Virus record (IMG/VR): IMGVR_UViG_3300031760_000087
Span: 1-56,676 of that record
DNA from: a virus
Reading direction: 5' to 3' (one strand)
DNA: 56,676 nucleotides
Below are positions 2,822 through 56,676 of the stretch, piece by piece. A program made the translations under genes and the position numbers. Position 1 is the first letter of the stretch, and each line of letters begins with the position of its first letter. Under the pieces are notes generated by a model. The model saw nothing but the letters and a program-made list of their open reading frames with translations, did no database searches and was not told the DNA's origin.

Positions 2822-2824
2822 CGT

Positions 2825-3208: not shown

Positions 3209-3366
3209 GATGATTGATTACTATAATTTTTTTAGTGGGTTATTATTTTTTCACCGATGACCCCCCCATCATAATCATTTTATCATCTCCCAATCACACC
3301 CCCCCCACACTCATATACACTTTTGATGGGGGGCGAGGGGAGAATTAATTTTTTGGAGAGTGCAGA

Positions 3367-10222: not shown

Positions 10223-10252
10223 ACCTGATAATACTTTTTAAGGAGATATTCA

Positions 10253-11248
10253 ATGGAAAACAAGATGGAAGACTACTACAAAGTAATGCAATATCTCCGA
10301 GAAATGTTCGTAGACAGACAATACCCTTACGAGTTTGAAGATGAAGAACTACTAGGTTCTGACTCTTCAATATCTCTTGTTGATTCCGAGTATGGTGACT
10401 TCGAGAAAAGCCTACAATTGGAAAGTATCAAGAGTGGTGATGTACTCCGAATGACATTACCTAAACCAAGAGATTTTACTGACTGCACAAGCTTTGAAGT
10501 CAGTTTCTATTGTAGTGAGGAGTTTGATCCACAGAACCTTGTTGTTGGTTTCAGTAATAAGAAGAAAGGCTACATTAATCAGGTCGAGCTTGATAGTGGT
10601 AATATTGTTGAGGCTGAAACCTACTTGAACAAGGGTGGTCATTACCTCATCAAATACAACCTAAAGGATACTAATACCAAGATGGCTAAAAAGGATAGAA
10701 GATTATCACATACAGAGTCAATTAGTTTGATATTTGGGCAGGAAGTTAATGAGTTAATCCTTTATGATGCAGTTTTAAGGACTGCTAATAATCATATTAC
10801 CCTTGAGGACTTGGATGAAACTATAGTGATGGGTACATATTATATTCAGAACCAGTTATTGTTGGAGGATGCAGAGGATATTCCATTACCATTGCAACAT
10901 TTGAATTATAAGTCTGCAGGTGCTTACACTTGGTTGATATGGTGGGAGAACGAGAGCAAAGTACAAGATGATGGTACTAAAGAGGGCAGAAACTATGCCA
11001 CACGATTGTTCGACCAAATCGACCTCTTCCTACAAAAATGGTTAGAAGCCCACCCAACTGGAAATACTGATCCTAACCTGAAGCTCTTGGGATTCACTAC
11101 ATATCAGGACTTCCCAATAAAACGAAGAATCCACGAAATAGGAAACAACCAAATCTATGTCTATGACCCTGAAGACCTACGAAACTACAATACAATGAGA
11201 TTAGTCATCAGTAACCGACTTGACTTATTAGGTGCAAAAGGAGGATAA
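10253..11248 (+). CDS. head-completion / connector-region protein (331 aa), function unknown
   Basis: Position between the capsid and tail genes. AGGAG lies upstream. Confidence 0.55.
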   Translation: MENKMEDYYKVMQYLREMFVDRQYPYEFEDEELLGSDSSISLVDSEYGDFEKSLQLESIKSGDVLRMTLPKPRDFTDCTSFEVSFYCSEEFDPQNLVVGFSNKKKGYINQVELDSGNIVEAETYLNKGGHYLIKYNLKDTNTKMAKKDRRLSHTESISLIFGQEVNELILYDAVLRTANNHITLEDLDETIVMGTYYIQNQLLLEDAEDIPLPLQHLNYKSAGAYTWLIWWENESKVQDDGTKEGRNYATRLFDQIDLFLQKWLEAHPTGNTDPNLKLLGFTTYQDFPIKRRIHEIGNNQIYVYDPEDLRNYNTMRLVISNRLDLLGAKGG

Positions 11249-17600: not shown

Positions 17601-19072
17601 TTAGTGGAATCAATAAGTTTAACTGGAGATTCCAACAACAGATTGGCAAGTTGACTACATCAATTGATATTAACAAGGCTAATAATCTGATACATAGTGC
17701 TAATGCTATCAAGAATATTAATACTGCTATTCGCAATCTTGTTAAGGATATGAAAGCAGATGAGAACATTGTAAATACTGCTAATTTCAAGGTAAGTATC
17801 ACTAATCTTGGTACTCAAGTGGGTATTGTTAGTGGTTTCTTGGCTAGGATGGGTAAGTATAATGCTGATGCTTTCAGTTATAATAATTTTCAATCTATTG
17901 TGACTAGCATTAATAATATTAAGAATATCTCTGACAGTATGCAAAATTTGATGGGTAGTTTTACTTCAGAGAGTATTTTCGGTGCTTTGAAAAGGGCTAT
18001 TGTTGGTGGTACTACTGATTTAGGAGGTAGTCTTCAAAAACTTGCTCAACAAGTCAGTCAAGTTAAGACCTTTGTAACCCAAGTGAATGCCTATGGTATT
18101 GGAAATATCAATGTTAATCTTGCACCGATTAATACTGCTATTAATCAAGTCAGGGCAATCGGTAACAGTATGAATAACCTGACTAATACATTGACTACTA
18201 GTTTTGATTATACTACATTGGCTTATAACTTGTGGACTATGGGTAATGCTATAGTGCAGGTTAAGAAGTTTATGGATAGGGTTAATGCATCAGGAGTTGG
18301 CAATACAAACAAACAGAATGCAGTGGCAGGAATAAATGGATTGGTTACTCAATTGAAGAAGACACTTGATGAGTTTGCTAGTGAGGTTGCTAGTGCTAAA
18401 CAACAACTGCATACTGATGGTCAGACTCTTGGTAATAGTTTCAAACGAGGTTTAAGCAGTACAAGGGCAGGAACTATCAGTACTGCGAGGAGCATTATGA
18501 CTAGTGCAGTAGCAACTATTCGTTATTATGCTCAAAGGTTCTATCAGACTGGTCAATATAATGGTAAGCGATTGGATGCAGGTTTCAAGAGTGGTGTTAG
18601 TAAGCTTGGCAGTACCTTGAAAGGTAAATTGGATAGTATTATTAAAACTATCCGAGGTTATAGTGGTCAATTCTATAATGCAGGTGACCTCCTTGGTGGT
18701 AAATTCAGAGATGGATTCCTAGCAGGACTTGGTACTATTGATGTGAATAGCCATATTAATGGAAATGAGGGCAGTTATGGTGGTGAATATCGTAAGGTTC
18801 AAGATTTCAACCTCCAATCTGCAATGTTAAAACAAGCGAATAATAAGCAGACACCTAATGTCAAACAGACTGTTATCAAATCCGAGAAGACTACCACACA
18901 GACCGAGAAGACTGTTGAAAAGGATAAGAGTAAAGAACAAGCACCAGTTATTAATATTAGTTTTGAGGGTGCGATTATTAATGGATCAAATGAATTCAGG
19001 GAAAGTATTCAACAGATTGCAGAGGAAGTTATGCTTAATTACTTATCTCCTAATCCTGCAACTGGATACTAA
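14612..19072 (+). CDS. tape measure protein
   Basis: 1486 aa, with six ~39-aa N-terminal repeats and a Gly-rich hydrophobic centre (GGAIGGLGGKIAGLF...). Position is canonical. Confidence 0.85.
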   Translation: MPVEVVGGVEAKLSLDISQFTSAITTATEQAEKLSSGLANVKPNNTLDSNITKTEELITNLQQTIEGLASTVKSSFTNIDSTLTNHFNKPLIEAKKRAEEMTASITQFRTNYMETFEQGRISLEQLVNGFNELNISEEESIKLTKELEASITNAFANSTMSAMEYVYALKEIGVATSKNSYREALQQYRGMPTNASFVKQIKEYATSLKEGEVSAQEFAVKLKELGITSRELATISREVGGAYVESFKRGEMSVSELLMKFKELTFTESELYVYNQRMAVSFVQAFRNGAMSLEELVSSFKQLDTSAKQTEELTKLLEKTLTMAFKNGKLEAENYIRSLQEVGVATEEVALKTKGLGSTGSLLGAGSLSNSKNKGTGAGFGGVIDRTANLVKMMAMLEAFMGTWEATESYMESSSAIRGFYDLLSKRNDATKWNAKNLAEYNQRLSDLQGTYSKLNVRETGAEVMKIGQMYGLTAKEMYSNTKDLKKGQKDFVETALIFTDAMANEGRSARDSSLALKDLIDQGAGWSRRTQEVGITEDVLKAQKDKNGKAYWSGDKQDKKGLIEALGSAETQLHLDERAKQINTIEDGVQALYNSLGALLGGLLDLASPSLIQIFKQLSGIFFELNGYLVQFSGWFNSLKDTSPWLYNAGVWLGEIAIASGVGFLALKRFGGAIGGLGGKIAGLFKKVPSGGLLGRLFGSGSKGTGGIAEGTGGVVSETGGATRTLKSTLTNIKSNLLLEAEVFVSLVAGISMALATLWIASEELALLGQRYEQIKTNVNKGMTALRDYEKLIEDIYPMLIGFIAVSGILGAVAYTTEGLGLVAIGGGLLALVGFINVTVASLQTVGDRLAELGDHIGGQKANFDKGCKALKEIGEMMGVLAIAVGEMAKADWNALSDNIASALAKLTGGDALQDVLKLADKFNGNDSNSFISQFNAKTKNIGKLNTESAKKFSEVVKSVGEIFKGINELNKALKEEPQNPSQLLDQRGSHLGEIISGINKFNWRFQQQIGKLTTSIDINKANNLIHSANAIKNINTAIRNLVKDMKADENIVNTANFKVSITNLGTQVGIVSGFLARMGKYNADAFSYNNFQSIVTSINNIKNISDSMQNLMGSFTSESIFGALKRAIVGGTTDLGGSLQKLAQQVSQVKTFVTQVNAYGIGNINVNLAPINTAINQVRAIGNSMNNLTNTLTTSFDYTTLAYNLWTMGNAIVQVKKFMDRVNASGVGNTNKQNAVAGINGLVTQLKKTLDEFASEVASAKQQLHTDGQTLGNSFKRGLSSTRAGTISTARSIMTSAVATIRYYAQRFYQTGQYNGKRLDAGFKSGVSKLGSTLKGKLDSIIKTIRGYSGQFYNAGDLLGGKFRDGFLAGLGTIDVNSHINGNEGSYGGEYRKVQDFNLQSAMLKQANNKQTPNVKQTVIKSEKTTTQTEKTVEKDKSKEQAPVINISFEGAIINGSNEFRESIQQIAEEVMLNYLSPNPATGY

Positions 19073-19776: not shown

Positions 19777-22700
19777 ATGAGTTATCAAACAATCGAACCA
19801 GTTAGTGTAAGTCAATCTGATGAGAACAGATTATGGTATAATCTTGCTACTCTTGTACCAACTGATACTGTGTATGATAATACTACAGAGTTGGTGCAGA
19901 CTAGGAGTGGTTATGCCGAGTGCATCTTGAATGGTTTCTATTATGATGAGAATAAGCCTAATAGTTTGACTTTTGATTTCGGAAGTACCGAGATAACCGA
20001 TACCACTAATATCAATAATGTCAGGTTCTACTTCAGGATGTATGTCATTGGCGATGGCAGAACCAATATGGTTTCACAGACTCCGAAACCGAATGTGAAA
20101 CTGTGGACTAATCTTGACCCTGATAGGACTTATGATTGGCACGATAGTGATGAGTATTTGAAGCTTGTTGATGAGATGGATCATAATTATTATGTGGATG
20201 CAGAGGCTAGTTATTTGAATGATAATTATGATAGTGGTTATATTGATTTTACTGTGACCTTTAATAATACTAGTATGGGTAATGTCTTGTCTTCAGGTTT
20301 CTTCAATAATGGGTTCGGTATTAGTTTGGAGTTTCCTCCGAGCAAGTGTATGGTCGAGCATCGCATCATCTTCGAGAGCTTGTATTGTGTATTGAATTAT
20401 GGTACTGATGGTGGAATGACTGTTACTAGTGATAATAGTGAAACTTATACAGTTAATACCTTGAATACTATTCAATTTACTATTGTTGAGGATACTGATG
20501 TTGATAGTAGGATCAGTTTCGAGGCAGAGGGTGATGGGTTATATATTAATCCTTACAATAATGTGGGGGTTGAAAATGGTCACCCAATCAGTACTGATGA
20601 CCCTTATAAGTTTGCAGAGGTGCAGACCTATGGTGGTAATACTGTTGTTGTTACCTTGCATTTTGTTCCGACAAAGACTGGTGATTGTAGTTTCAAGGTT
20701 ACTGTTAATGAGGAGTTGACTCCAAGAGTATTCAATTTTACTGTTGTTAGTAATGATGAGGATAGTTATTATCCAGTTTATAATTTTGAAGAAGATACTC
20801 TGACTTTTTATGGTGACTTCACAAGTAATCCTGAAGAGTATGTGACTAATGGAACACCTGCAACCTACTTTGAATATATTAAGAAAGTTACATTAACAAG
20901 GAGGCATATCACAAAGTATGCTTATAAAACCACCTCCATTGTAGCAGAGGGTACAACTCCAACATATACTAATCACACAATAGATGTGGATGTATATCTG
21001 TATAATGTTAATGTTGAGTTATGGAATAAAGGAATGATAACCATAACTGATGGGTTTTTTACATCTGAAAGCAACGAACCAATAACAACTATGGTTGGTG
21101 GAGGATTAATTAGTGGAGGAGATAGGGTTCTCCCATCAGGATATCAAGGTGACATTATAATTTCCACAAATGATGACTCCATCACTATACCATTAAACAC
21201 ATCTAATCTTTCAAATGTTACATCTACAAGAAATGATCCAATATATAATGATATATCAACAAGAGAAGAAGCTTTTAATTATATGATGGATGGTACACCC
21301 CACACATACTCAACTGGGAATGTAACACAATATGAGGGAACATACCCACAGACTGTTAAAACTTACACCCCAAGTAATAGTGTTTATGATAGTTTATTGG
21401 AGATTCATAACATTGGCACTACTGATGTTCAGGGAATAACCACACCATTATTCAGTATTGATAATGTTGAAGTGTATAGGAAGTATTCAAGTGGGAATTA
21501 TAGATTATTAGACCCTCATTTCTACTCATTAACAACAAACAATAATGAACTATTATTGAAGACTTTTGAGGGCAGATACTACGAGGATAATGAGTTTCCA
21601 AACAGTACTATTCAAGATATCAAATCATACAATAAGGATTATCACGATAAGGTAGTAGTCCACATAACACCTTTAAGGAACGAATACCATTTCCAATTAA
21701 CTAGTCAAGGAATGAGCAACACCACAACACAAAAAACCAACACCTACTACCAACTCTTTTCCCCAAACAAGTACACAACTGGCTCTGTCTTGAACATCCT
21801 CCCTGCAACTGCTTATATGCAAGAGAGGACAAAGGTCACAATTGAAAACTTCGCAACTGGTGAGAATGATATAATCCATTACTATGCCTACATTAAAGAT
21901 GGTGTGCAGATACCTAAAAAGGATGCCCTGAATCCTGATGGTACACTTAAAGAGGGTGTGACTTTTGAGGAAGTGACCGAAGATGAAGCTTATGTTACTT
22001 ACTACTGGTTCAACAATACTGCTTTCTCCGAAGAAGAAGTATTGACCTTGATAAGTGACTTTGAAGACTGTACTCTTGGACTTGACCCAAGCCAATACGA
22101 GAACCTAGGAACTACTAATGTTCGTATGATGAGATTGATGAGAACAACAATCATACCAAAATACGAGTCTGTTCTTTCATTGGATTTCAGTAAATGCCAT
22201 TTCATTCTCAAGAAACCAAGAAGCGATATCAGAGTAGAATTGCCAGTTCCTTACATTGGAGCAGTAAGATTGCATCGTTGCCATAAGGCTGATGTAACAA
22301 ACACAACCACCAATAGCCTAATCCGAGAGGTATATCAGAATCGCCAATACTATGGTAAGAAAGGAGATTGGGAAGAGAAAATCACAATGACTCTTCGTAT
22401 GCCTTGGCAGGACATCGTAACATTACAAGGACACACAAGAGCCGATATGCCAATCCCAATCGACATTAACCCCTTACACCCTGATGGTGACCCATTAAAC
22501 CATAGAGGATGGGCAGAGATAAGCAGTACTGGAGAAATCAGTAAAATCAATGATATGCTCTACCAATGCAAACCTGAAGTAACCTACTTAACCCACGAGT
22601 TGATTGGAAGATTTGCTATTACTCAAGATCCTGATAGAATCTGTGACCAAGACCCTCCGATTAATATGTTGAAGACTCACGAGTATTGGGAAGATGACAG

Positions 22701-25700
22701 AGAAGTATTGGATTTAAGCAGTTACTTGAACTTCCATAATATGCCAATCGGCGATGGAATGTTTAAGGGTGTTTATACTGTTGCAGATGACAATGAATAT
22801 GTCTTTGATTTGAAAGGAACTGTTTCCAGTATAGGCAGATATAATTGGAGATGGAGAAACATTCTTCCTGCATTGGGTACTACTGCTCACGATGATAATC
22901 GTTGGCAGACTGCTATCAGGGTATTGGGTGCATCTGATGATTCCCTGCTCTTCGAGTACTTGTATAAAGATTTCAAACACTATGATGGTGACAACCTACT
23001 CAATGAATCTGATGTAAGAGTACTACACAAGAATCCAGTAACTGGCTTACTTGACACCATTGATTACACTCATATGAACCTTGACTTCGATGAAGTTGGA
23101 GCAGAAGTCAGTATTGATAAGACAAACACTTATATTGAGATTCCAAAGCAAGACCAAACCTTGTTTGAAAAGGGTAGGAACTTATACTTCACATTAAGGG
23201 ATAGCAAAGGTTATGGAATACCTAATAAGGATGTTGATGTTAACATTATTAATAATCACGATGAGGTTATCTATTCAATCCCTGCCTTGACTGATGTAAA
23301 TGGAAATAGGGATGTTGAATTGAACCTTGAGAGTGGAGATTATACTGCTCAATTGTTGTTTAGTGGGGATGATGAGTACAATCCTTGTTCAATCGAGTAT
23401 TACTTTACTGTTGACTTGGTATACAGACAAGGAACAGAACTTGCTATATACAATGAATATGGAGGATATGGATACGATATCAACAATGAATACCTCAAAG
23501 GCAGACTCTTAACCGATGATGACCGACCAATAGCAGGTGAAAAAGTCTATGTAACAGTATACGAATACAAGACAATAAAAGCCAGTAATGGAAAAACCAC
23601 TAAAACATTCAAAGTCAAGGAAGCCATATCCCCTGAAATAGAATGTACTACAAGCAGTACTGGATGGTACAAATGCAAAGCAAACCAATTCTGTGTTGAA
23701 GCTGGAACATTCAATGTAGAGGCTATTTATAAGGGAACAGATTATTACCAAAGGAATAGTTACTCAAGAGATTTCACAATGCGAAAATGGTACAAGCATA
23801 AAGTCACCATAACTACTAGCGACCAAAAGTACGAGCAGGGTAAGAAGTATAATTTTGTAGCAACCTTGAAAGACCATAAAGGAAAACCAATCAAAGGAGA
23901 AACCTTAAGATTTGGTATCCATAATTTTGAGAAAGGTATTAATCAAAGATTCGCTATCAAGACTGATAAGAATGGTCAAGCAAAGATTCCAGTTATGTTC
24001 AATAGTGGAAATCATAGTATTGATACTTATTACTTCGGTAGCAGTAAGTATGAGTATAGTCCTGCTAGAAACACTAACAAGATAACTACTTATGCAAAGG
24101 GCAAGGAAACAACCACTATAACTGCATATATGATGCACATTGTAGATTATGTGAATGATGAGTACAATGCTTGGTTAAAAGACAGTAGTGGTAAAGGAAT
24201 CCCTAATGTTCCAATCACATTTGAAATATATGATTATGAGAAACAATCCAAGAAAGCAACAGAGAGTGGAGTGAATAGTGGTAAGCTTGGAAAACTACGA
24301 GAAAGAGGAACACGATTGACTGATGCTAGTGGTCAAGCAGAATGGAACATCAATTTACCTACTGGGGATTATATTGGTTATGCTACTTATAATGGAGATA
24401 ACAAGTATGCTAAATCCAGTAGAGGAAGAGCAATCTATATTAGCAGACCAAACACTACCCATAATATGAACATCACATTCCCACAAGCAGTTGGAGGGGC
24501 AATACAAGTTACAAGGGATGAGCAGACTGGTGACCTATCACCAATTGTCATACAATTAACTGCAACTCCAAAACTTGGTGGAATAAGCACCAACCCAAAA
24601 GGAATTGATGCAAAAATCACATACACAAACCTTGCTAATGGAAAGCAATATGATGGATCAACAGTAAACACTACTATCACAAGTGATGACAATGGTCAGA
24701 TAACAATCTACCCTAACCTTGAAAAAGGCAACTATCGTATGAATATCGAAACATATGGAGCTTCAATTGATAAGAACCACGATGGTGTGTTTGAAACAGT
24801 ATTCGCAGGTAAGGAGTCAAGTGTTACTTTGAATGTGACTAATGATTGTTATATGGATACTTTGATTGATGTTGTTGAGGCTAATAATAATGTTGTTCAT
24901 ATTCGCAAGGATAGTGGTGAACCTATAAGGATACTCTTGAAAGGTATTGATGAGGCTACTGGAGAACCTTTCCTTATTCCGAATAAGAGAGTTAGTGTGC
25001 AGTACACTTACGAGGATTTGACTAATAGGAAGACAGTTACTTCAAGCAAGGAATACTTCACAACTGATGAAAATGGATTAATCAATTACACTAGGAAAAT
25101 AGGTTATACTGGAACATTAACAATCAGTTATAGTGGAGATGTTGGTTATGATAGTTGCTTGAAAACAGTAACTGTGAATGTACACGATAAAAGCCAGTAT
25201 ACTTCACATTTCAGTTACAAGATGAACACCGACACCATAAGGTATGAAGCCTTGCCTTTAAACATAAGAAGCTTCTATAAAAATGGTGACACCAAGTATC
25301 CTACCTCAAATACACGAGTGAGGATTCAAGTTACTCATAGCGACCCATTAGTTTATGATAAAAGTTTCATTAGATACACAGATGGTAATGGTTATATTGA
25401 TATTAATCTTGTTTTCCCTGAAAATGGTAAGTACACTATTAAATTGTATGCTATTCAAGAGGTTAATGATGTGACTTCAGAGGTTCTTGTCAAGACATTG
25501 CCAGTTGTTAGTGTGGATGGTGCAGACAAGGGTACAGACACAGAGCCAGTAGAATACCTGCCTAACAAATTACCTACTACTCTTGAATTCGTAAGCCCTG
25601 ACTTAAGTGTTGGTGGATTAGTCAAAGAACCAATCCAACATACTGTGACTAGATTCCCATACCTACTCAAAGCAAAAGTCAGTTACTTCGATGAGGGAGT

Positions 25701-27816
25701 AGAAAGAGTACTGCCAAACCATCGTTGCAGAATATACTTCACATTAACCAATGGAGTAATTGAAGAGTATCAGAGATATACTGATACTGATGGAGTAATG
25801 ACATATGAGAGTTTACCTCTTGCTTATGGTGAATACCCAGTAACCATCGAGGTAGAAACTGATGACACATATGCAACAAGCAACATCAACACAGTATTAA
25901 TCGTTACAGAAGAAGCCGAGAAAAGCTTCGATAGTCCATCACCTGCAAAAGCACACTTGCAGAAGAAGAAAGGACAAGTAACACCATTGGAAACACCACT
26001 TGTGGAAACTTATGATGGTATTGAGTATGGATCAACTGCCGAGATGACATTCGATGGAAACTTATTGGATTTCCAAGATTATGGTTTGACACAGAACACT
26101 ACTCAAGTTGGAGCGAAAATAAGTCTTACTGATATTGAATTGCCGAAAGATGAGAAAGGTTACAAGTTGCAGTTCTTGACTAGGTATAATAATGATGTTG
26201 ACAATACTGTTGATGAGTTATTAGGAACATTGCAAGTTGAAATAACAGATGACAAAATAAGCAAACTATACCAACAATTCTATGAGAACCTAGTTGTATC
26301 CCCTGCTCCACTATACAACCATAAATTAATGTTCACTAGAGAGGCTGAAGATGGAACACTCTACTACTACGATGTAACAAGCAACATTGATGTGAAACGA
26401 TACAGACTTTCCCCATTCCTACAATATAAAGGTGGAGTAAACCTAGAAACTGCATCAGGGGTAAGCATCTTCGACCTAGAAACTGGAGTAAGTCCAGTTA
26501 TAATCAATAATGGATTAGTAAAGGCAGAATTCAACAAGAGAAGTGGATTCGTAAGAGTAGCAAGATACGATGACAGAACAAAAACTTGGAACTGGGTCAG
26601 ATGGCTACAAGTCGAGGAAAACTTCTACAAGATGGAATTACTCCATTATTCAACTGATAAGATAAGCTTGAAAATGGGCAACACTATTTGGACTGTATGG
26701 AGAGGCAGACCTTGGATAGAAATCAAGCACGAAGATGATGATATTAGGATCATCGGAGAAACCAATAAGACTTATGCCGAAATCCTCCATAACGATACAA
26801 GGTATCAGATAATGAGTGAGGTTGACACTCATAATGGAATATTCAATACCTACAATGCAATCAATTACCTTGGTAAGGAATTGAATATCACAGAGAATAT
26901 TAAAAAGGATAACTTCACAGTTACTGGTGCAACTGCATCTACTCCAATCGATATATCATTGATTGGTGAAACTTGTCTTAAAGTGGATGCTAATAGTGAT
27001 GAGTACCATATCAAACTTCCTCAAGTACAAAGACCATCAGATGACATCTTCACATTCCTCATAGACAGATTGAAGATGGATAATGTTGATAATATCAAGA
27101 TTACCTGCAATGCTTATGATACCAAGGGTGGAGAGTTTGTAGCAAGTGCAAGTAGGGAATTTGATGTTGAAACTACTGGAGATGAAACAGTAACAGACCT
27201 TGTTAGTGATGGCAGACTGAATACTGGTTTCAGGTCAGTATTCGACCTATCAGATTTCAAAGACACCAATAATAATTCAATAAAGGAAACCACTTACTGG
27301 CATAATAATGAACAAGTAAGTAAAGAAGATGCATATGTCACCATAATTGATGAGGAAGATGGCACTACATATACAGAGCTTAAGGAAAATATTGAGATTA
27401 AGGAAACTTTCGGTGCGAAGTATGAGAAGTGTAACTTCCTTGAGTTTGATATTGAGTTGCATAAGACTGTTAGTGGTAATAACAGTTATGCGATAATCAA
27501 TCATTTAATGTTGTCTGATGGTGATAACAGAATAGGTTATATGGTTGATAACAGACTTGATGGAATCAGCAATCAAGCAATCGCTTTCACAAATACTTTC
27601 TATACTAACCTCTACAATAGTTTCGAGAGTTTCGGTTTATGTATATTAAGACCTTATCGTGACCAAATCTACTTACATAAACTGCCGAAGAGCAAGTGTA
27701 CTGTTCTGATCCCATACAATCGATTCTGCAAGAAATATGACAGCCCAAGTTATGTCTGTCTTGAATATGTATTCACCCATAACCAAACAACAAGCTTGAT
27801 AGGGGATGAGTACTGA
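19777..27816 (+). CDS. giant tail-tip / adhesin-like protein (2679 aa) with about 8 tandem Ig-like repeats
   Basis: The repeat signature (K/R)D..G.(P)I....V.. ... TD.(N/D/S)G.. ... G.Y ... Y.G(D/S)..Y recurs about 8 times between nt 23185 and 25905. Position after the distal tail protein fits. Confidence 0.7.
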   Translation: MSYQTIEPVSVSQSDENRLWYNLATLVPTDTVYDNTTELVQTRSGYAECILNGFYYDENKPNSLTFDFGSTEITDTTNINNVRFYFRMYVIGDGRTNMVSQTPKPNVKLWTNLDPDRTYDWHDSDEYLKLVDEMDHNYYVDAEASYLNDNYDSGYIDFTVTFNNTSMGNVLSSGFFNNGFGISLEFPPSKCMVEHRIIFESLYCVLNYGTDGGMTVTSDNSETYTVNTLNTIQFTIVEDTDVDSRISFEAEGDGLYINPYNNVGVENGHPISTDDPYKFAEVQTYGGNTVVVTLHFVPTKTGDCSFKVTVNEELTPRVFNFTVVSNDEDSYYPVYNFEEDTLTFYGDFTSNPEEYVTNGTPATYFEYIKKVTLTRRHITKYAYKTTSIVAEGTTPTYTNHTIDVDVYLYNVNVELWNKGMITITDGFFTSESNEPITTMVGGGLISGGDRVLPSGYQGDIIISTNDDSITIPLNTSNLSNVTSTRNDPIYNDISTREEAFNYMMDGTPHTYSTGNVTQYEGTYPQTVKTYTPSNSVYDSLLEIHNIGTTDVQGITTPLFSIDNVEVYRKYSSGNYRLLDPHFYSLTTNNNELLLKTFEGRYYEDNEFPNSTIQDIKSYNKDYHDKVVVHITPLRNEYHFQLTSQGMSNTTTQKTNTYYQLFSPNKYTTGSVLNILPATAYMQERTKVTIENFATGENDIIHYYAYIKDGVQIPKKDALNPDGTLKEGVTFEEVTEDEAYVTYYWFNNTAFSEEEVLTLISDFEDCTLGLDPSQYENLGTTNVRMMRLMRTTIIPKYESVLSLDFSKCHFILKKPRSDIRVELPVPYIGAVRLHRCHKADVTNTTTNSLIREVYQNRQYYGKKGDWEEKITMTLRMPWQDIVTLQGHTRADMPIPIDINPLHPDGDPLNHRGWAEISSTGEISKINDMLYQCKPEVTYLTHELIGRFAITQDPDRICDQDPPINMLKTHEYWEDDREVLDLSSYLNFHNMPIGDGMFKGVYTVADDNEYVFDLKGTVSSIGRYNWRWRNILPALGTTAHDDNRWQTAIRVLGASDDSLLFEYLYKDFKHYDGDNLLNESDVRVLHKNPVTGLLDTIDYTHMNLDFDEVGAEVSIDKTNTYIEIPKQDQTLFEKGRNLYFTLRDSKGYGIPNKDVDVNIINNHDEVIYSIPALTDVNGNRDVELNLESGDYTAQLLFSGDDEYNPCSIEYYFTVDLVYRQGTELAIYNEYGGYGYDINNEYLKGRLLTDDDRPIAGEKVYVTVYEYKTIKASNGKTTKTFKVKEAISPEIECTTSSTGWYKCKANQFCVEAGTFNVEAIYKGTDYYQRNSYSRDFTMRKWYKHKVTITTSDQKYEQGKKYNFVATLKDHKGKPIKGETLRFGIHNFEKGINQRFAIKTDKNGQAKIPVMFNSGNHSIDTYYFGSSKYEYSPARNTNKITTYAKGKETTTITAYMMHIVDYVNDEYNAWLKDSSGKGIPNVPITFEIYDYEKQSKKATESGVNSGKLGKLRERGTRLTDASGQAEWNINLPTGDYIGYATYNGDNKYAKSSRGRAIYISRPNTTHNMNITFPQAVGGAIQVTRDEQTGDLSPIVIQLTATPKLGGISTNPKGIDAKITYTNLANGKQYDGSTVNTTITSDDNGQITIYPNLEKGNYRMNIETYGASIDKNHDGVFETVFAGKESSVTLNVTNDCYMDTLIDVVEANNNVVHIRKDSGEPIRILLKGIDEATGEPFLIPNKRVSVQYTYEDLTNRKTVTSSKEYFTTDENGLINYTRKIGYTGTLTISYSGDVGYDSCLKTVTVNVHDKSQYTSHFSYKMNTDTIRYEALPLNIRSFYKNGDTKYPTSNTRVRIQVTHSDPLVYDKSFIRYTDGNGYIDINLVFPENGKYTIKLYAIQEVNDVTSEVLVKTLPVVSVDGADKGTDTEPVEYLPNKLPTTLEFVSPDLSVGGLVKEPIQHTVTRFPYLLKAKVSYFDEGVERVLPNHRCRIYFTLTNGVIEEYQRYTDTDGVMTYESLPLAYGEYPVTIEVETDDTYATSNINTVLIVTEEAEKSFDSPSPAKAHLQKKKGQVTPLETPLVETYDGIEYGSTAEMTFDGNLLDFQDYGLTQNTTQVGAKISLTDIELPKDEKGYKLQFLTRYNNDVDNTVDELLGTLQVEITDDKISKLYQQFYENLVVSPAPLYNHKLMFTREAEDGTLYYYDVTSNIDVKRYRLSPFLQYKGGVNLETASGVSIFDLETGVSPVIINNGLVKAEFNKRSGFVRVARYDDRTKTWNWVRWLQVEENFYKMELLHYSTDKISLKMGNTIWTVWRGRPWIEIKHEDDDIRIIGETNKTYAEILHNDTRYQIMSEVDTHNGIFNTYNAINYLGKELNITENIKKDNFTVTGATASTPIDISLIGETCLKVDANSDEYHIKLPQVQRPSDDIFTFLIDRLKMDNVDNIKITCNAYDTKGGEFVASASREFDVETTGDETVTDLVSDGRLNTGFRSVFDLSDFKDTNNNSIKETTYWHNNEQVSKEDAYVTIIDEEDGTTYTELKENIEIKETFGAKYEKCNFLEFDIELHKTVSGNNSYAIINHLMLSDGDNRIGYMVDNRLDGISNQAIAFTNTFYTNLYNSFESFGLCILRPYRDQIYLHKLPKSKCTVLIPYNRFCKKYDSPSYVCLEYVFTHNQTTSLIGDEY

Positions 27817-35399: not shown

Positions 35400-36590
35400 G
35401 TGAGTTATATGACACAAGCAAAAACCAACCTTGAAATCATAAATGAATTTTGTGAGAAGAAACAACATTCCTCTCACACTAGAACAGTATACAAAACAAC
35501 TTTAATGAAATATGCACAGTTTAATAATATGAGTCTTTGCGACCTCATAAAAGAAGCTGAAGCCGAAGAGGACAAAGGCATCAGATGGAAAAGATGCAAT
35601 TTACTCAACAGACTTGAAAGTTTCAGAGCTTACTTGGTAAAGAATTTTTCAGAAAATACTGCCAAGCAAGACCTCTCACGAGTTAAGACTTTTTATAAAA
35701 GTTTTCGTATAGAGATTGGAGAATTAGATTATCTCTCCGACAAGGTTTACAATAAAAAACCAACCTTGGAATTTGAAGAGATAATCGACAAGGACACTAT
35801 CAGAAGAACCCTTGAATTATGCACTCCAGTATTGAAAAGTCTGATCCTATTCCAAACTTCTTCAGGTAGTGCCAAGGCAGAAGCCCTGAACCTAACCATT
35901 CAAGACTTCATAGATTCAGTAAGCAGTTACACAGATGCTACTGAATTAAAACAAGTCCTAAATGATTTAAATGGGAAATGTGTAATTCCAAAGTTTAAAA
36001 TTAAGAGGCAAAAAATTAACGAGTACTACTACACATTCTGTAGTCCTGAATGTACTCAACAAATCGTTGACTACTTGAAGATGAGAAGAGTCAGAAGTTT
36101 AGATGAGCCTCTCTTCAAGATAAGTGATGTCTACTACAAGCAGATGTTGATAAATCTCAACAACGAGCTTGGACTAGGAAAATGCTCCGATGGTTTCAAC
36201 AAATTAAGAAGCCACCAATTAAGGAAGTACTTTGCAACCACAATGATGAATGGAAAAGGCTGCAAATTATCAATGACAGATATTGACTTCCTGGAGGGCA
36301 GGGCATCAAAAGGCAGTAGGAAATCCTATTTCTTCCAGGACTCTGAACGATTACGAGTCAAATATGCAGAAAGTATGAACGCTATCTGCATTAATAAACA
36401 GTATGAAGTTGATGTTGTCTTGGATCAACTTGAAATCGTTGAAGTTGGTTCTCAAACCTACGAACAACGAAAGGTCAAGGAACAAGCAGAGCGAATAGCA
36501 ATGCTTGAATCAAGGTTGAGCGAAAGAAACATCTTAATTGAGGATATCGACAAAATTGTCGACCTCATTGATGCAATGGGAACTTTTTAA
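35400..36590 (+). CDS. int: tyrosine recombinase / integrase (likely start ATG 35409)
   Basis: HxxR box (KLRSHQLRKYFATT) and a C-terminal Tyr region (GRASKGSRKSYFFQ). The N-terminal SAM-like core-binding region is typical of phage integrases. Confidence 0.75.
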   Translation: MSYMTQAKTNLEIINEFCEKKQHSSHTRTVYKTTLMKYAQFNNMSLCDLIKEAEAEEDKGIRWKRCNLLNRLESFRAYLVKNFSENTAKQDLSRVKTFYKSFRIEIGELDYLSDKVYNKKPTLEFEEIIDKDTIRRTLELCTPVLKSLILFQTSSGSAKAEALNLTIQDFIDSVSSYTDATELKQVLNDLNGKCVIPKFKIKRQKINEYYYTFCSPECTQQIVDYLKMRRVRSLDEPLFKISDVYYKQMLINLNNELGLGKCSDGFNKLRSHQLRKYFATTMMNGKGCKLSMTDIDFLEGRASKGSRKSYFFQDSERLRVKYAESMNAICINKQYEVDVVLDQLEIVEVGSQTYEQRKVKEQAERIAMLESRLSERNILIEDIDKIVDLIDAMGTF

Positions 36591-39625: not shown

Positions 39626-41824
39626 ATGGAAATGGAATGGGTAAAAATCGGTAGCAATACCTCTCTTTCCATCGAGTACAATAACTCCGATAAGTACAAT
39701 CTTATTTTAAAAAGGGGTAACAACACCCCTATTATCCTTTTGACAAGCAAGAAGAGTGTAACCGAACTACCGAAAAGTAGTGAGCTATACTCCACTCTTG
39801 ATAATTATCTTAACCCCTCCAACAAAAGGCATTTAAGATTCATTCAGAATCAGGAAGTTGTTGGTTCTTTGGATCAGATGCCATCTGATTCTGAAAGGGA
39901 GCAGTTTGTTTCCGATTATAAAGGATGGGTTGTGACTCAACTTGAAACACTTCGCAGTAAGGTGATGGAGTCCAGTAAGGAACAAGTGTTACTGGATAAG
40001 GATGCTCAAATCCAAGAACATCTGATTGCCGAAAAGCAGAGGATGGATGAGAAGTATCTTCCATTATTCCAAGAATTCAATGAGAGATGCAATGAGTATA
40101 ACTTCACACCTCTACAGTTTATCGCTCAAGTGGTACACGGCTTGGGTGTTGGACTCAATATTGAGGTTCTCCGAGCTTTCATTGGTTTCTTACAAACTTA
40201 TCTTGGATACAAAGGTACTAATGTTATCGCTGTTGGAAGCCAAGCAAGTGGTAAGAGTCACATCTTGGATTCTGCTCTTCGGTTTATCCCTGAAGAGCGA
40301 GTAGTGAAAGGGTCTATGACTCCTGCCTATTTCTTCAAGAAATATAACAGAATGGATTTAACTGGATATATTTTCTATATCGGTGACCTTGGAGGAGATA
40401 ACTCCAACGAGGACACCTTGAGGATGAGGGATATGCTCAAGGAATTATCCACAGATGGTTACATCAGCCGAGGTCTTATTGATAAGGATACTAATTCTCA
40501 AACAGAGGAATTCGTTACTGGTTATCCTGCTTTGGCATATACCACAGTACACGAGAGTTATATTAATGACCAAGAGAAATCAAGGTCTATTGTCATAACT
40601 CCACCAAGCATTGATAGTTACCAGTTGGCTATCTTTAAGGATGCTCAAAAGAATGCAGGAGTATTCAAGCCAGTAATCGAAAGGATTAAACGAGATTGCC
40701 TTTTGGTTCAAGCATATTGTTATCACCTCAAAGAAGAGGGAGATACCAAGAACATAGATATACTCAATACCTACTTTATGCAGGTAATTGAGAAGTTGAA
40801 GTCTAATGAGGATTTCAATCGTAAACTTGATGAGTTTAACAGTATCTTGAAGATTTGTTGTATATTAAACAATTGCTATATGACATCTCATAATTACTAC
40901 GAGAATGAGAGTAGTCTTATCCTTGCTAGTAAGCAAGATGTCATAAATGCTTTAGCGATTTACGATAACAATACATTACTTCCAACAGATTTGGTTCTGA
41001 TCCGAGGACTGTTATCAAAATACAAGACATTTGATATGCTTGATGATACATTGGATTCCGATGACCCTACCTATTTCGAGGATAATGTGAGGAAACACTT
41101 GAGGAATCACGATAATCCTGATTGGGATAGTGATATGTATAAGGAGTATTTCTTTACAGCGAGGACTATCAGGAATAAGTGGAATCGGCAGAGATGGTAT
41201 AGGAAGTCAAAAGAGAACTTGGAACTCAAGCTTAAGAGATTATATGAACAAGGGTTATTGATTCAAATCGATTATGACAATCGTGATCCAGTATATGCTC
41301 TGAATAAGGGCATTGATTTGATTATCGAGGCTACTGACCTTAACTGGAAAAAGAAAGAGTTAGTGGAGAAGTCCAACAAGGTTAATATCCTCAAATATCC
41401 AAGTGTCAAGGATGAGTATATGGCTTTCTTCGAGAAAGATATTCAAACCAACATCAAAGATAACAACTTTGGTCTTGAAGATGATTTGATTTATCACTCC
41501 ATTTGGGATGACCCAATCTATATGGAGGAAACCGAAACAATCGAAAAAGAAGTTTCCTTTGAGGAAATTGAAGAACCAGTTAAGGAAGTTGAAGAGAAAT
41601 CTGAAAACCTTGATTTAAAGGAACTTATCTTCAATATAATCAAGGAGAATGACTTCAAGACTTTGGAGGAAATCAAGGGAATAGTTAGTAAGAATCATAT
41701 GAGTTTCAATGAAGAGGCTGAAGTACTAGAATTCGAGAGAGAATTCAATAAGAACTTCAGAGAACTTAAAAAGGAAAAACGAGTAATGGTTAATGCTATC
41801 GGTGTTGTTGGGGTGGTTGAATGA
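39626..41824 (+). CDS. P-loop NTPase, replicative helicase / initiator candidate
   Basis: Walker A is GSQASGKSH and Walker B-like is YIFYIGDLGG. 732 aa, immediately upstream of the primase. Confidence 0.55.
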   Translation: MEMEWVKIGSNTSLSIEYNNSDKYNLILKRGNNTPIILLTSKKSVTELPKSSELYSTLDNYLNPSNKRHLRFIQNQEVVGSLDQMPSDSEREQFVSDYKGWVVTQLETLRSKVMESSKEQVLLDKDAQIQEHLIAEKQRMDEKYLPLFQEFNERCNEYNFTPLQFIAQVVHGLGVGLNIEVLRAFIGFLQTYLGYKGTNVIAVGSQASGKSHILDSALRFIPEERVVKGSMTPAYFFKKYNRMDLTGYIFYIGDLGGDNSNEDTLRMRDMLKELSTDGYISRGLIDKDTNSQTEEFVTGYPALAYTTVHESYINDQEKSRSIVITPPSIDSYQLAIFKDAQKNAGVFKPVIERIKRDCLLVQAYCYHLKEEGDTKNIDILNTYFMQVIEKLKSNEDFNRKLDEFNSILKICCILNNCYMTSHNYYENESSLILASKQDVINALAIYDNNTLLPTDLVLIRGLLSKYKTFDMLDDTLDSDDPTYFEDNVRKHLRNHDNPDWDSDMYKEYFFTARTIRNKWNRQRWYRKSKENLELKLKRLYEQGLLIQIDYDNRDPVYALNKGIDLIIEATDLNWKKKELVEKSNKVNILKYPSVKDEYMAFFEKDIQTNIKDNNFGLEDDLIYHSIWDDPIYMEETETIEKEVSFEEIEEPVKEVEEKSENLDLKELIFNIIKENDFKTLEEIKGIVSKNHMSFNEEAEVLEFEREFNKNFRELKKEKRVMVNAIGVVGVVE

Positions 41825-42780
41825 ACATCTACCAATTATTATTTCGTAGGAATCAACACTACCTCACTATCAGGAGCAGAGATGGAAGACCTGCTCAAAG
41901 ATACAAAGTACCTAACCACAGATTCCTGAAAAAAGCTTGGAGTAGACAGAACCCTGATGAGGATTTATATATTACAAAGTATCCTAAAGATGGAGTTATT
42001 TCAACTATCATCTTGGATTTCGATTCCGAGAATAATATTGAAAAAGCCTACGAAGACTGCTACAAGATATACAAATATCTTCAAACCAAAGGCACAAACT
42101 CTGTCATAGTATCTTCAGGGAACAAGGGCTACCACTTATATATCCAAATACCTGCCACCAACTTCAAACTTGTTGGCGATATTGAAGTTTCTGATCCAAA
42201 CTTGTTGTATGATATTTTCGTTCAAGATTTTATCAACAATGTGCATTGGAATTTTGAAACCTTGGATATGGTGAATCATCAAGCAGGATTAAAGGGCAAT
42301 ATCCGACTAATCAATTCATTCCACCCTAAAACCAAGAAACCCTGCAAAGCAGTACTTGGAGAATGGATTGAAGAGGATAATGAAGACTACTACTATCAAG
42401 CATTGAAGTACAAGGATATTATCTTCAAGAATGCTTACAAGAAGTATATGAAACAAGAAAGGGAGAAAATCGAAAAAAGAATGAATCGTATTAAAGAGCA
42501 TCAGAGCAGGAAATTCCTAGATAGTGATTATAATCCACTTGATGAATCCTGCAAAGATGTTATGCAAAACATATTCAATTTGGATAAGGTGACAAATAAG
42601 GCTAGTGGAATGTGGTGTTGTTGCCCATTTCACAATGACAGCAATCCGAGTATGGTAGTTACTGATGACTACTTTTACTGCAAGGGTTGTGGAAAGAAAG
42701 GAAATGTGTGGACTTTAATCAAGGAGGGTTATTATAACCCTACTGGAATTGATAATAGTTGTGTAAAGGTGGGAAAATGA
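41821..42780 (+). CDS. archaeo-eukaryotic primase-polymerase domain fused to a C-terminal DnaG-type CHC2 zinc finger
   Basis: AEP motifs are ILDFDSE (DxD), SSGNKGYHLY (sGxGxH) and NIRLINSFHPKT. The finger is CCCPFHNDSNPSMVV...YCKGCGKKGNVW. Confidence 0.7.
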   Translation: MNIYQLLFRRNQHYLTIRSRDGRPAQRYKVPNHRFLKKAWSRQNPDEDLYITKYPKDGVISTIILDFDSENNIEKAYEDCYKIYKYLQTKGTNSVIVSSGNKGYHLYIQIPATNFKLVGDIEVSDPNLLYDIFVQDFINNVHWNFETLDMVNHQAGLKGNIRLINSFHPKTKKPCKAVLGEWIEEDNEDYYYQALKYKDIIFKNAYKKYMKQEREKIEKRMNRIKEHQSRKFLDSDYNPLDESCKDVMQNIFNLDKVTNKASGMWCCCPFHNDSNPSMVVTDDYFYCKGCGKKGNVWTLIKEGYYNPTGIDNSCVKVGK

Positions 42781-46964: not shown

Positions 46965-46979
46965 TTATGAGGGAGTAGT

Positions 46980-47306
46980 ATGAGGATTGATAAGATTAAT
47001 GGCAAGTTATGGGATAATTATCTCATAACTTGCAACCAAATGAGGGATGGTATGAGGATTGATAAGGTAAGTGGTCGGTTATGGGAATGGTACATAGTGA
47101 CTTGCAATCATTGTGGAGCGAAGATTAAGAAACCAGTATGGTGGTTGAAGCTATTATTCATCTTCAAGAGTAAACTATACTTCACTTGCAATGAGTGTCA
47201 CAGTACAAGTTGCTACATCAACTTTTTCCGACTGATCCACGATACAACCGATGAGCAGGAGAAATTAATGAATAAATATCCCAAATGGGATAAGAGGATA
47301 AGATGA
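46980..47306 (+). CDS. Cys-containing protein with duplicated N-terminal module (108 aa)
   Basis: MRIDKINGKLWDNYLITCN and MRIDKVSGRLWEWYIVTCN are 72 nt apart. Then CNHCGA ... CNECHSTSC. Confidence 0.55.
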   Translation: MRIDKINGKLWDNYLITCNQMRDGMRIDKVSGRLWEWYIVTCNHCGAKIKKPVWWLKLLFIFKSKLYFTCNECHSTSCYINFFRLIHDTTDEQEKLMNKYPKWDKRIR

Positions 47307-55213: not shown

Positions 55214-55488
55214 AACCAAAAATGGATTCCCAAAAACTTATTTAATTTCTAAATAATAGATTTGAAAATGAGTTTCCGAAATCAGGAGGGATTCCCTAGA
55301 ATCAGAACCCTTTCCCAGTTTCAGATTCTAAAACTGATTTCCGAAATCTGAATTAGTTTCCGAGAACTGGATTCTAATTTCAGTTTCAGATTCCAAAATC
55401 AATTTCCGAAAACTGGAAAAGTTTCCGAGAATCAGATTCAAAAATCGATTTCGGAAATAAAAATGAATCCCAAAATAACCAATACAAA
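55214..55488. repeat. Dense array of TTTCCGA(A/G)AA palindromic sites interleaved with GATTC/GAATC motifs
   Basis: Six strong sites at 55272, 55336 (perfect 13-bp palindrome GATTTC-C-GAAATC), 55356, 55402, 55421 and 55447, plus about 7 GATTC-type motifs. No ORF. Confidence 0.85.
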
Positions 55489-55827
55489 ATGGAGCTAATA
55501 ATTATGTACCCACAATTAATCAAAAATTATGCAAAAACATTAATCAAAGACCTAGGCACAGAACACACAACCTACAACATCAAACCAACCGACATCAGCA
55601 ATAACTACAACAACTACTATGTCATCAACATTACAATCCTAATTGAAAAACCATCAGAATTCGACCCTGAATCCACAACAATCCAACTACTCCATACACA
55701 ATTAATGGATGAGATTAATATGCCAATCATCGTGGACAAGGAAGACCTCCGAACACTCTACACCACCCTTAAAGAAGAGGGGGCTAAAATCGGAAACAAG
55801 GAAGACATCCAAAAACTACTGGAATAA
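55489..55827 (+). CDS. hypothetical protein (112 aa)
   Basis: ORF track. Confidence 0.55.
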   Translation: MELIIMYPQLIKNYAKTLIKDLGTEHTTYNIKPTDISNNYNNYYVINITILIEKPSEFDPESTTIQLLHTQLMDEINMPIIVDKEDLRTLYTTLKEEGAKIGNKEDIQKLLE

Positions 55828-56019
55828 AACACTATTTTATCACAAGTTGCACTACATCAAAAGTGCAACAAACCCTTATTTTTCAACAACACTTTAATTA
55901 TCCTGCATCTTCAATCAATATAACACTACTTTTACTACTGGAGTATAATAATCCACGAACCAACACCCCACTTAAACAACCCCCTCCCAAGAGCAGACAC
56001 ACACCACAAAACAACCATC

Positions 56020-56166
56020 AACATCGTGGACAAAAAAACACACCACCCCATACCACCATCGTGGACAAAAAAGAAAAAAATAACACCCATCGTGGAGGCA
56101 AAAACCATCATCACCCATCGTGCAAAAAAACAAATAACACCCATCGTGGCAGAGTCTTCGTGGAGG
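56020..56166. repeat. Six iteron-like C(C)ATCGTGG repeats in an A/C-rich tract
   Basis: Copies at 56023, 56056, 56086, 56114, 56138 and 56155. The 16-mer ATAACACCCATCGTGG occurs twice. Confidence 0.85.
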
Positions 56167-56249
56167 AGGTTTAAAAAAAACATATAAATAAATATTATAA
56201 TTACTTTATAGCTATTTTAGGATCATCTGAAAATATATGCACCTGCAGG

Positions 56250-56676
56250 AATTCAGGAATTCAAGACCTGCTGGAATTCAGGAATTCAAGACCTGCTGGA
56301 ATTCAGGAATTCAAGACCTGCAGGAATTCAGGAATTCAAGACCTGCTGGAATTCAGGAATTCAAGACCTGCTGGAATTCAGGAATTCAAGACCTGCTGGA
56401 ATTCAGGAATTCAAGACCTGCAGGAATTCAGGAATTCAAGACCTGCTGGAATTCAGGAATTCAAGACCTGCAGGAATTCAGGAATTCAAGACCTGCAGGA
56501 ATTCAGGAATTCAAGACCTGCTGGAATTCAGGAATTCAAGACCTGCAGGAATTCAGGAATTCAAGACCTGCAGGAATTCAGGAATTCAAGACCTGCAGGA
56601 ATTCAGGAATTCAAGACCTGCAGGAATTCAGGAATTCAAGACCTGCAGGAATTCAGGAATTCAAGACCTGCAGGAA
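56250..56676. repeat. 25-bp tandem repeat array, 17 units plus 2 nt, with an A/T variant at one position
   Basis: Unit is AATTCAGGAATTCAAGACCTGC[A/T]GG. Variant order is T T A T T T A T A A T A A A A A A. The last 127 nt equal nt 1-127. Confidence 0.97.

Follow-up and report, generated by a model that had tools for sequence, protein, structure and literature searches.

Genomic context of the array

The stretch of DNA analyzed here is a viral sequence of 56,676 nt (IMG/VR virus record IMGVR_UViG_3300031760_000087, positions 1 to 56,676; hereafter "the window", meaning this whole stretch), which ends in a tandem array of a 25-bp unit. This array is a variable-number tandem repeat (VNTR), directly evidenced by two pairs of strains. 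All long open reading frames (ORFs) of the window lie on the + strand, and besides the genes listed below they encode an ERCC4/HhH nuclease and a dCTP deaminase, together with a weak match to a pseudomurein endoisopeptidase. Among deposited phages, the best match of the large terminase subunit (TerL) was Caudoviricetes sp. vir249 (48.6% identical; host Methanobacteriales, human gut). Because of the integrase, the TerL, small terminase subunit (TerS) and portal genes and the match to vir249, the gene content points to a temperate tailed virus of a Methanobacteriales host, assembled as a circle. The features around the array, followed by the genes used for this assignment and a primase-like gene, are as follows (coordinates, strand where one applies, description):

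55847-55868, + strand: hairpin TTGCACT-N8-AGTGCAA followed by T-rich DNA, after a 112-aa gene (55489-55827); kept in all relatives and serving as an anchor
56022-56163, + strand: six CWTCGTGS boxes in an A/C-rich stretch, with spacings of 35, 31, 28, 26 and 14 bp; conserved in all relatives
56164-56240: AT-rich left spacer, from the boxes to the array
56220-56231, + strand: 12-mer GGATCATCTGAA, the first half of a two-part site, 9 nt upstream of the array start at ACCTGCAGG; conserved in relatives
56241-56676: tandem array, made of a 9-nt partial unit ACCTGCAGG (56241-56249), 17 full 25-bp units (56250-56674) and then AA
1-127: assembler overlap, an exact duplicate of 56550-56676 (5.1 A-units) that contributes no additional DNA
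128-297: AT-rich right flank, conserved in relatives from A(C/T)TA(C/T)AATTATATTAAA onward
298-346, + strand: AAATTCCAGATCATC and then two ATATT[CT]CAGGACC boxes (315-327 and 334-346), just upstream of the next feature
359-370: TATA-like AAATTTAAATAC, ahead of the first downstream gene (432)
2165-2216, + strand: second two-part site, in single copy, GGATGATATC..ACCTGCAGGT..GGATCATCTGAA, within a 1.45-kb gene-free stretch
3913-4389: TerS (phrog_4102)
4391-5608: TerL (Terminase_3 and Terminase_3C)
5628-6950: portal gene
35400-36590: integrase (phrog_1)
41821-42780: primase-like protein

Structure of the array and its coding status

Tandem Repeats Finder (TRF) delimited the array at 56241-56676, with a period of 25, 17.4 copies and 98% matches, the units being arranged head-to-tail and without spacers. 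The unit is AATTCAGGAATTCAAGACCTGC[A/T]GG, and the pattern AATTCAGGAATTCAAGACCTGCWGG had 22 exact matches in the window vs 0 expected from shuffled sequences. A preliminary description of this DNA, made by reading the sequence alone, had given the same unit, coordinates and spacer-free layout, and it had also correctly reported the order of the A and T variants along the 17 units (TTATTTATAATAAAAAA, i.e., T T A T T T A T A A T A A A A A A from 5' to 3') and the restriction of an 8-bp palindrome (CCTGCAGG) to the A units. The final 154 nt of the array (56523-56676) form a perfectly periodic run. The unit contains EcoRI and PstI/SbfI sites, and it is not enriched in adenine (36% A, compared to 35.9% in the genome). 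Fold-back of the single-stranded array is strong with A units (z of -7.6 for 152 nt and -6.0 for four units) and weaker with T units (z of -2.5).

Contrary to the earlier statement that the array holds no ORF, the + strand has no stop codon across the array in any of the three frames and an ATG at 56238, while the minus strand has 11-12 stops per frame. The array is nevertheless non-coding, because the unit length is not a multiple of three and the copy number varies: a protein-coding repeat was rejected since a 25-bp unit (1 mod 3), repeated 1.36 to 17.4 times depending on the allele, shifts the frame, and since some relatives carry 19-bp units. The shortest of these alleles leaves an ORF of only 23 codons.

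Searches for the array elsewhere gave little. No Rfam family was matched by the array or by any other part of the window, and no second high-copy perfect array was found in the window or in the loci fetched from relatives. The unit was absent from 185,579 reference genomes and was present in a single related contig in IMG/VR and JGI metagenomes, and deposited phages had no similarity to the array region. Within the rest of the window, k-mers of the unit occurred at chance level (k=9, 29 observed vs 18.4 +/- 4.5; k=10, 4 vs 5.0), and dispersed degenerate copies forming a regulon were rejected on these counts. Among the degenerate core copies proposed previously, the boxes at 298-346 and the copy at 2177 are real, and those at 38116 and 38582 are 9-mers of chance frequency. 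A recurrence of the 25-nt period near 2016-2065 had been suggested as well; TRF fits 2013-2105 equally well with periods of 8, 11, 14 and 25, and therefore this segment is A/C-rich low-complexity DNA.

Contig ends and the number of units

As previously reported, nt 1-127 are identical to nt 56550-56676, and 127 nt is exactly the longest overlap between prefix and suffix. This length equals a usual maximum k of assemblers. The lengths of direct terminal repeats (DTRs) are known to cluster at assembler k values (CheckV paper, PMC8116208). The identical ends are thus an assembler's k-mer overlap from a circular or concatemeric template and do not represent a physical terminal repeat. The overlap resembles the assembler-derived DTRs of circular contigs (PMC8116208) in being exact and of a typical maximum k, and it differs from the usual case in that the break is non-random, falling in a repeat whose perfect run exceeds k+25, so that closure is ambiguous by whole units and had to be validated by other assemblies. 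Because the overlap is the same DNA, the five units at the left end are the last five units at the right end, and the earlier count of 17 to 22 units becomes at least 17; as the 154-nt periodic run is at least k+25, a graph built at k=127 leaves the number of A units ambiguous.

Several other assemblies traverse the site, so that the array passes the check proposed in the preliminary description, and an adaptor or linker origin is ruled out. IMGVR_UViG_3300032038_000622 (= Ga0326512_10000904) has unique DNA on both sides of 6.4 units, ENA ERZ27256903 k141_1718336 crosses the site between unique flanks with 1.36 units, and the 56,465-nt contig ENA ERZ27256908 k141_28107 (L033) carries the array internally, near 22.9 kb, between flanks 100% identical to those of the window. 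The assemblies of L004, L015 and L017 also run through the array site. The array had earlier been described as closing the genome, possibly as terminal redundancy, a view that does not survive its mid-contig position in L033 and the coincidence of the overlap with assembler k. If the L033 contig carries a 141-nt overlap, we infer genome lengths of 56,324 nt for it vs 56,549 nt for the window, and the 225-nt difference between these conditional lengths would equal 9 units. Genome closure is confirmed by other assemblies, with length and unit count uncertain by whole units, and a 127-nt "DTR" lying wholly within a repeat is by itself weak evidence for completeness and none for physical ends. All copy numbers given here come from short-read assemblies, and several are lower bounds (contigs ending in the array, N-gapped scaffolds).

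Copy-number variation between near-identical genomes

The two strain pairs combine nearly unchanged flanks with different arrays. The window and L033 have no mismatches in 2,400 and 3,400 nt of flank, with at least 17 units (TTATTTATAATAAAAAA) in the former vs 8 (ATAAAAAA) in the latter; their variant maps have the right-hand T-AAAAAA block in common and differ in the left part. Similarly, L004 and L017 have 0 mismatches in 6,752 nt of one flank and 1 in 3,322 nt of the other (1/10,074), and they carry at least 6.4 vs 1.36 units. The 1.36-unit allele reads ACCTGCAGGAATTCAGGAATTCAAGACCTGCAGGAA, that is, ACCTGCAGGAA-N14-ACCTGCAGGAA, an 11-bp direct repeat 25 bp apart. The array thus has the properties of a VNTR or minisatellite (spacer-free units, copy-number alleles, differing variant maps and no coding function), and because units differ while flanks stay near-identical, its rate of change is far above that of point substitution. 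As the fastest clock of these genomes, moving while about 6-10 kb of flank remain unchanged, it could be used for strain typing of methanogen viruses from gut and rumen.

Arrays at the same site in related viruses

Two genes on either side of the array, the upstream 107/112-aa gene and the downstream GP88/DUF7227-like gene, were used to fetch relatives, with at most 10 kb of flank per locus. At the homologous position, nearly all of them (about 13 of 14 resolved loci) have a perfect tandem array, located between a left flank (GGATCATCTGAA..GCACCTG in types 1 and 4) and a conserved right flank, A(C/T)TA(C/T)AATTATATTAAA. All arrays of the relatives are 100% perfect, the window's array with its variant units being the exception. 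The units fall into the following types:

Type 1: 25 bp, ACCTGCAGGAATTCAGGAATTCAAG; the window, L001/L004 and L033, also L009 and L010 (3.2 or more copies)
Type 2: 18 bp, CCATGGACTAGCTGGAAA; L005 (at least 8.1 copies)
Type 3: 18 bp, CTCCAATAATTCCAGTAA; L015 (5.5 copies, internal)
Type 3': 18 bp, CCAGTAACTCCAATAACT; L035
Type 4: 19 bp, CTGCAAGGACATCCAGTAA; L006, L018, L019 and L022
Type 4': 18 bp, CTGCAGGACATCCAACAA; L025
Type 5: 9 bp, AATGACTCC; L024

These units form a chain of significant similarity, in which type 1 resembles type 4' (p=0.007), and 4' resembles 4, 4 resembles 3 and 3 resembles 5 (p<0.003 each), while type 2 stands apart. Because of this chain, the array is considered old for the clade, with a unit that drifts and is re-homogenized. 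Across relatives, the array keeps its position and its tandem state but not its unit sequence. Fold-back is limited to types 1 and 2, and types 3, 4 and 5 have neither a palindrome nor fold-back potential, so a secondary structure common to all arrays was rejected.

Apart from the array, these genomes differ little. Across relatives, TerS is 96-100%, TerL 97-99.5% and portal 95-99% identical, the TerS comparison spanning unit types 1, 4, 4' and 5. The neighboring 107-aa protein is 92-97% identical in relatives, an AbrB-like 110-aa protein is 98% identical between genomes with the 25-bp type-1 and the 18-bp type-3 unit, and the GP88-like protein varies in identity without regard to unit type.

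Outside these relatives, no comparable array was found in the first 50 kb of the 51.1-kb vir249 record or at the distant GP88-like loci L026-L028, and a scan of IMG/VR with the right-flank pattern returned only chance matches beyond the known contig. The array is therefore confined to a narrow clade. The paper on MSTV1, a related cultured virus, contains nothing on such repeats (PMC11375127).

One relative carries additional features at the array. In L005/L007 (IMGVR_UViG_3300031867_009177), the 18-bp array at 10190-10389 has CCATGG in each unit and is preceded by a perfect 22-bp palindrome, CCATGGATCAGCTGATCCATGG. Despite one CATG per array unit, this tetramer is nearly purged from the rest of the L005 contig (2 in 10.2 kb vs about 39 expected).

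Flanking sequences and the two-part site

The CWTCGTGS motif occurs 12 times in the window vs 1.76 expected, and six of these copies are the boxes left of the array. They are candidate iterons or operators, and would be better iteron candidates than the array itself. On the right, 162-261 (GC 10%) is the 100-bp segment with the highest AT content of the genome. The array appears to lie in the main cis-acting control region, between the six boxes on its left and the most AT-rich 100-200 bp on its right. From their layout, the boxes and the AT-rich DNA probably belong to an origin or an early/late control region. The hairpin of the left flank was not found in reference genomes, and that search yielded no prophage or host context.

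The exact 12-mer GGATCATCTGAA is present twice in the window, on the same strand (56220 and 2205), and is conserved at both places in relatives. The second copy is accompanied by ACCTGCAGG at 2177, such that at both places the 12-mer is paired with a CTGCAGG-type element 9-12 nt apart, amplified at the first and single at the second. Copies of the 12-mer often have an inverted GGATGATCC partner 33-37 nt upstream, and at its second site L022 has AACTGCAGGACATCCAA, a near-exact match to the type-4' unit. Between them, the two sites enclose the segment of the genome that varies most. This segment holds the array, the GP88-like gene (80-88% identical in relatives) and two small genes that relatives either lack or encode at 36-75% identity. 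The sites may be recognized by a protein or mark a boundary of recombination. Four conserved neighbors of the array are concrete candidates for the origin and the early/late switch in a virus group without a cultured member: the AT-rich segment, the CWTCGTGS boxes, the two-part site with GGATCATCTGAA and the ATATTCCAGGACC boxes.

Several further observations concern these flanks. The stretch at 1914-3366, which contains the second site, is 1.45 kb without a coding-strand ORF of at least 60 aa; its low-complexity repeats are A/C-rich and T/G-rich, relatives match it at 77-86% identity, and it has no Rfam match. The region upstream of terS is also gene-free in vir249 (1090-2572), L022, L024 and L025. 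The gap that precedes the 112-aa gene contains an imperfect direct repeat found by TRF (55316-55439, 65 bp x 1.9, 81% matches). In six relatives (L006, L009, L010, L018, L019 and L022), an extra cassette of about 3 kb, encoding proteins of 285/202/168, 232/116, 112 and 69 aa, is located between the 107-aa gene and the array, and it adds a second CWTCGTGS-box region directly before the array, i.e., the boxes are duplicated. Upstream of the 107-aa gene, in the accessory region that immediately precedes the array locus, L009-L012, L017, L018, L020 and L035 contain radical-SAM and B12-binding-domain genes as well as variable genes for a C5 DNA methylase and HNH proteins, forming another mosaic zone.

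Comparison with known repeat systems

The closest described phenomenon is the tandem repeats (TRs) of Borgs and mini-Borgs, elements of Methanoperedens (PMC9879509; bioRxiv 10.1101/2023.08.02.551345). Like these TRs, the array belongs to an archaeal mobile element and consists of perfect or near-perfect intergenic units of a length not divisible by 3, with seed-like partial units at its flank; in both systems, copy number varies within populations and repeats differ or are absent between close relatives (PMC9879509). Unlike here, where there is one hotspot per genome, Borgs have TRs at dozens of loci in and between genes, their units are 48% A (the window unit equals its genome at 36%), and their loci are mostly not positionally conserved, whereas in the present clade the position persists and the units are related by descent. 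Of the Borg hallmarks, then, perfect units, partial flanking units and rapid turnover were found, and pervasiveness and adenine enrichment were not. Fast perfect tandem repeats, so far described for Borg elements, are hereby extended to a tailed methanogen virus with a single persistent hotspot.

In its way of working, the array is closest to the VNTRs of the vertebrate mitochondrial control region (PMC13353940), which likewise recur at a fixed place in a non-coding replication and transcription region, vary in copy number and break assemblies. The mitochondrial arrays vary between and within individuals, which has been attributed to slipped-strand mispairing or unequal recombination (PMC13353940). 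The two differ in replicon and replication mechanism, and the putative origin in the window is deduced from boxes and AT-rich DNA.

A hypermutable minisatellite as the favored interpretation

We consider it probable (roughly 60%) that the array is a hypermutable non-coding minisatellite, derived from half of a conserved two-part site in a probable origin or control region. Because position and tandem state are conserved but unit sequence is not, any function it has would be dispensable or sequence-tolerant and would not amount to a fixed recognition code. The unit varies too widely between near-identical viruses for a fixed role as origin, centromere or packaging signal.

Mechanistically, the unit has grown from the second half of the two-part site GGATCATCTGAA-N9-ACCTGCAGG, and the 11-bp direct repeat 25 bp apart, as seen in the 1.36-unit allele, is a natural starting point for a 25-bp tandem duplication. 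Copies would then be gained and lost through out-of-register pairing of units, during replication slippage or unequal recombination, and some of these steps may have involved several units at once, as suggested by the variant string (TTAT)(TTAT)AAT-AAAAAA. The palindromes CCTGCAGG and GAATTC would allow a single strand to fold back and thereby favor slippage, and the 8-bp palindrome is destroyed by the A-to-T switch. The location between six CWTCGTGS boxes and the most AT-rich DNA resembles the layout of an origin or early/late switch, where initiation or fork stalling might cause instability. Possible sequence-tolerant roles would include spacing, or titration of a protein that binds the two-part site.

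Several points weigh against this interpretation. The near-universal presence of the array among resolved relatives, in perfect form save for the window's, is unexpected in that neutral hotspots usually also show decayed or empty states, and the tandem state may therefore be maintained by selection. The origin assignment is one of anatomy (boxes and AT-rich DNA), and the AT-rich DNA could instead be a late promoter region. In addition, copy numbers derive from short-read assemblies and include lower bounds, the 1.36-unit allele comes from a single MEGAHIT contig, and co-variation was assessed on loci with at most 10 kb of flank, while the Rep-like genes (39.6-42.8 kb) are located about 14 kb from the array.

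Alternative interpretations

The alternative that fares best, possible though we doubt it, is that the array is a selected multi-site element in which a viral or host protein reads a short core (CTGCAGG or ACTNCA-like, or the two-part site) while the rest of the unit drifts by concerted evolution, recruiting or titrating this protein in the manner of iteron control regions, enhancers or families like the EBV FR. The recurrence of arrays at one site in almost all relatives, all but the window's being 100% perfect, would be expected of such an element, as would the relation of units by descent instead of by independent origins and the derivation of the unit from a conserved two-part site that also exists elsewhere in single copy. 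The array moreover adjoins candidate iterons and an AT-rich segment like a DNA unwinding element (DUE), and the palindromes of types 1 and 2 are typical of dimer sites. On the other side, none of the TerS, 107-aa, AbrB-like 110-aa and GP88-like proteins co-varies with unit type, neither spacing nor helical phase is constant at unit lengths of 9, 18, 19 and 25 bp, types 3, 4 and 5 lack both palindrome and fold-back, and unit k-mers are not enriched elsewhere at k=10. The preliminary description had proposed a high-density protein-binding array; as a fixed array this is not supported, given the allele of 1.36 units in a strain that otherwise matches one with at least 6.4. Its AbrB-like candidate is not supported as a unit-specific binder either, the protein being 98% identical between genomes with a 25-bp unit and an 18-bp unit of unrelated appearance.

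Iterons deserve separate mention, as they had been put forward as a possible function. The gamma origin of R6K has seven contiguous 22-bp repeats, and P1 oriR and incA are likewise iteron arrays; the window array resembles such theta-plasmid and phage iterons in consisting of contiguous direct repeats (about 17-25 bp in iterons) that adjoin an AT-rich segment. Iterons are matched to and conserved with their initiator, whose gene usually lies next to them, and function constrains their number. Unlike them, units in the clade of the window change among near-identical genomes, copies range from 1.36 to at least 17, and the replication genes are about 14 kb away. What stands of the iteron proposal is the position, with the array abutting the GC minimum (162-261), a resemblance of place only.

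In a related view, which we hold to be rather doubtful, the tandem state itself is selected: every member of the clade would keep a perfectly homogenized array at one site, next to the presumed origin, with the unit turning over by concerted evolution as in centromeric satellites. The array could then be an amplified half-site of the GGATCATCTGAA and CTGCAGG-type element, acting as a dosage-tunable sink or recruiter for an initiator, recombinase or regulator, or as an expendable buffer of DNA ends. If true, this would constitute a new kind of viral cis-element in archaea.

It is improbable that virion DNA physically ends at the array, with the latter being a pac or cleavage region or a direct terminal repeat of tandem units, comparable to herpesvirus "a" arrays or an expendable buffer, and with copy changes resulting from annealing in variable register. 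The array heads the late and structural module upstream of terS and terL, and many contigs break in it; such breaks are expected at any repeat longer than k, and the 127-nt identity equals assembler k. The CATG carried by the type-2 units of L005, a tetramer otherwise purged from that contig, would be tolerable if cuts there were harmless. Packaging recognition by TerS, as previously envisaged, is difficult to reconcile with a TerS that is 96-100% identical while units differ and with a distance of 3.7 kb between array and terS, as a pac site is matched to TerS and usually located within or beside its gene. The "a" sequence repeats DR2 and DR4 of HSV and the oriP repeats of EBV lie in elements with a proven role at the termini or in maintenance, for which binding proteins or cleavage signals are known. 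The array shares with them hypervariable reiterations with strain-variable copies in a cis-acting region, in viruses that have a terminase and an HK97-fold capsid; in contrast, TerS does not co-vary with units in the present clade. Also against physical ends at the array, TerL of the Terminase_3/PBSX type, to which the TerL of the window belongs, is associated with headful packaging. For a related methanogen virus, the cultured MSTV1, headful packaging has likewise been inferred, its authors attributing the circular assembly to headful packaging with terminal redundancy (PMC11375127).

Even less probable is that the array is transcribed from the AT-rich left flank into a repeat RNA with a regulatory or architectural role, an idea that has been raised for intergenic Borg TRs (PMC9879509). 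All genes being on the + strand and TATA-like AT-rich DNA preceding the array would suit such a transcript, but there is no Rfam match, no structure common to the unit types and no conservation of unit sequence.

A partition centromere of a plasmid-like prophage, another of the functions initially considered, is very improbable. Tandem direct repeats are typical of type Ib, II and III centromeres and would fit; the virus, however, has an integrase, and the small proteins near the array show no co-variation with the unit. ORFs of at least 60 aa contained neither a ParA-type deviant Walker A motif nor a tubulin signature, a motif search that does not exclude a ParM-like fold, and no par-like Pfam or PHROG match was found among the neighbors and candidates scanned.

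Finally, an artefact (adaptor or linker concatemers, vector polylinker or mis-assembly) was rejected and is next to impossible, for although the array has EcoRI and PstI/SbfI sites, lies at contig ends and shares GACCTGCAGG with the pUC polylinker, independent assemblies from different projects and assemblers (JGI Ga0326512, ENA ERZ27256908, ERZ27256903 and the WOLF17 scaffolds) traverse it with the same unique flanks, relatives have different units at the same site, and A and T variants are interspersed within it.

Other features of the genome

Elsewhere in the window, the gene at 39626-41824 encodes a 732-aa protein with a Walker A motif (GSQASGKS) and no match in the Pfam and PHROG copies searched; it has hundreds of metagenome homologues, pre-annotated as PF27228, and probably serves this virus group as replicative helicase or initiator. 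The tail module includes two large ORFs, 19777-27816 (2,679 aa) and 14612-19072 (1,486 aa), the latter of which is probably the tape measure, judging from its position. A second imperfect direct repeat was found by TRF at 46967-47107 (72 bp x 1.9, 75% matches).

Palindromes are widely avoided in the window outside the array (128-56240). ACGT, CGCG, GCGC and GGCC are absent from these 56 kb, CATG occurs 2 times vs about 181 expected and CCGG 3 times, and 35 of the 64 palindromic hexamers are missing, while the sites contained in the array unit are not avoided genome-wide (GAATTC 28, CTGCAG 14). This avoidance probably reflects restriction pressure from the host.

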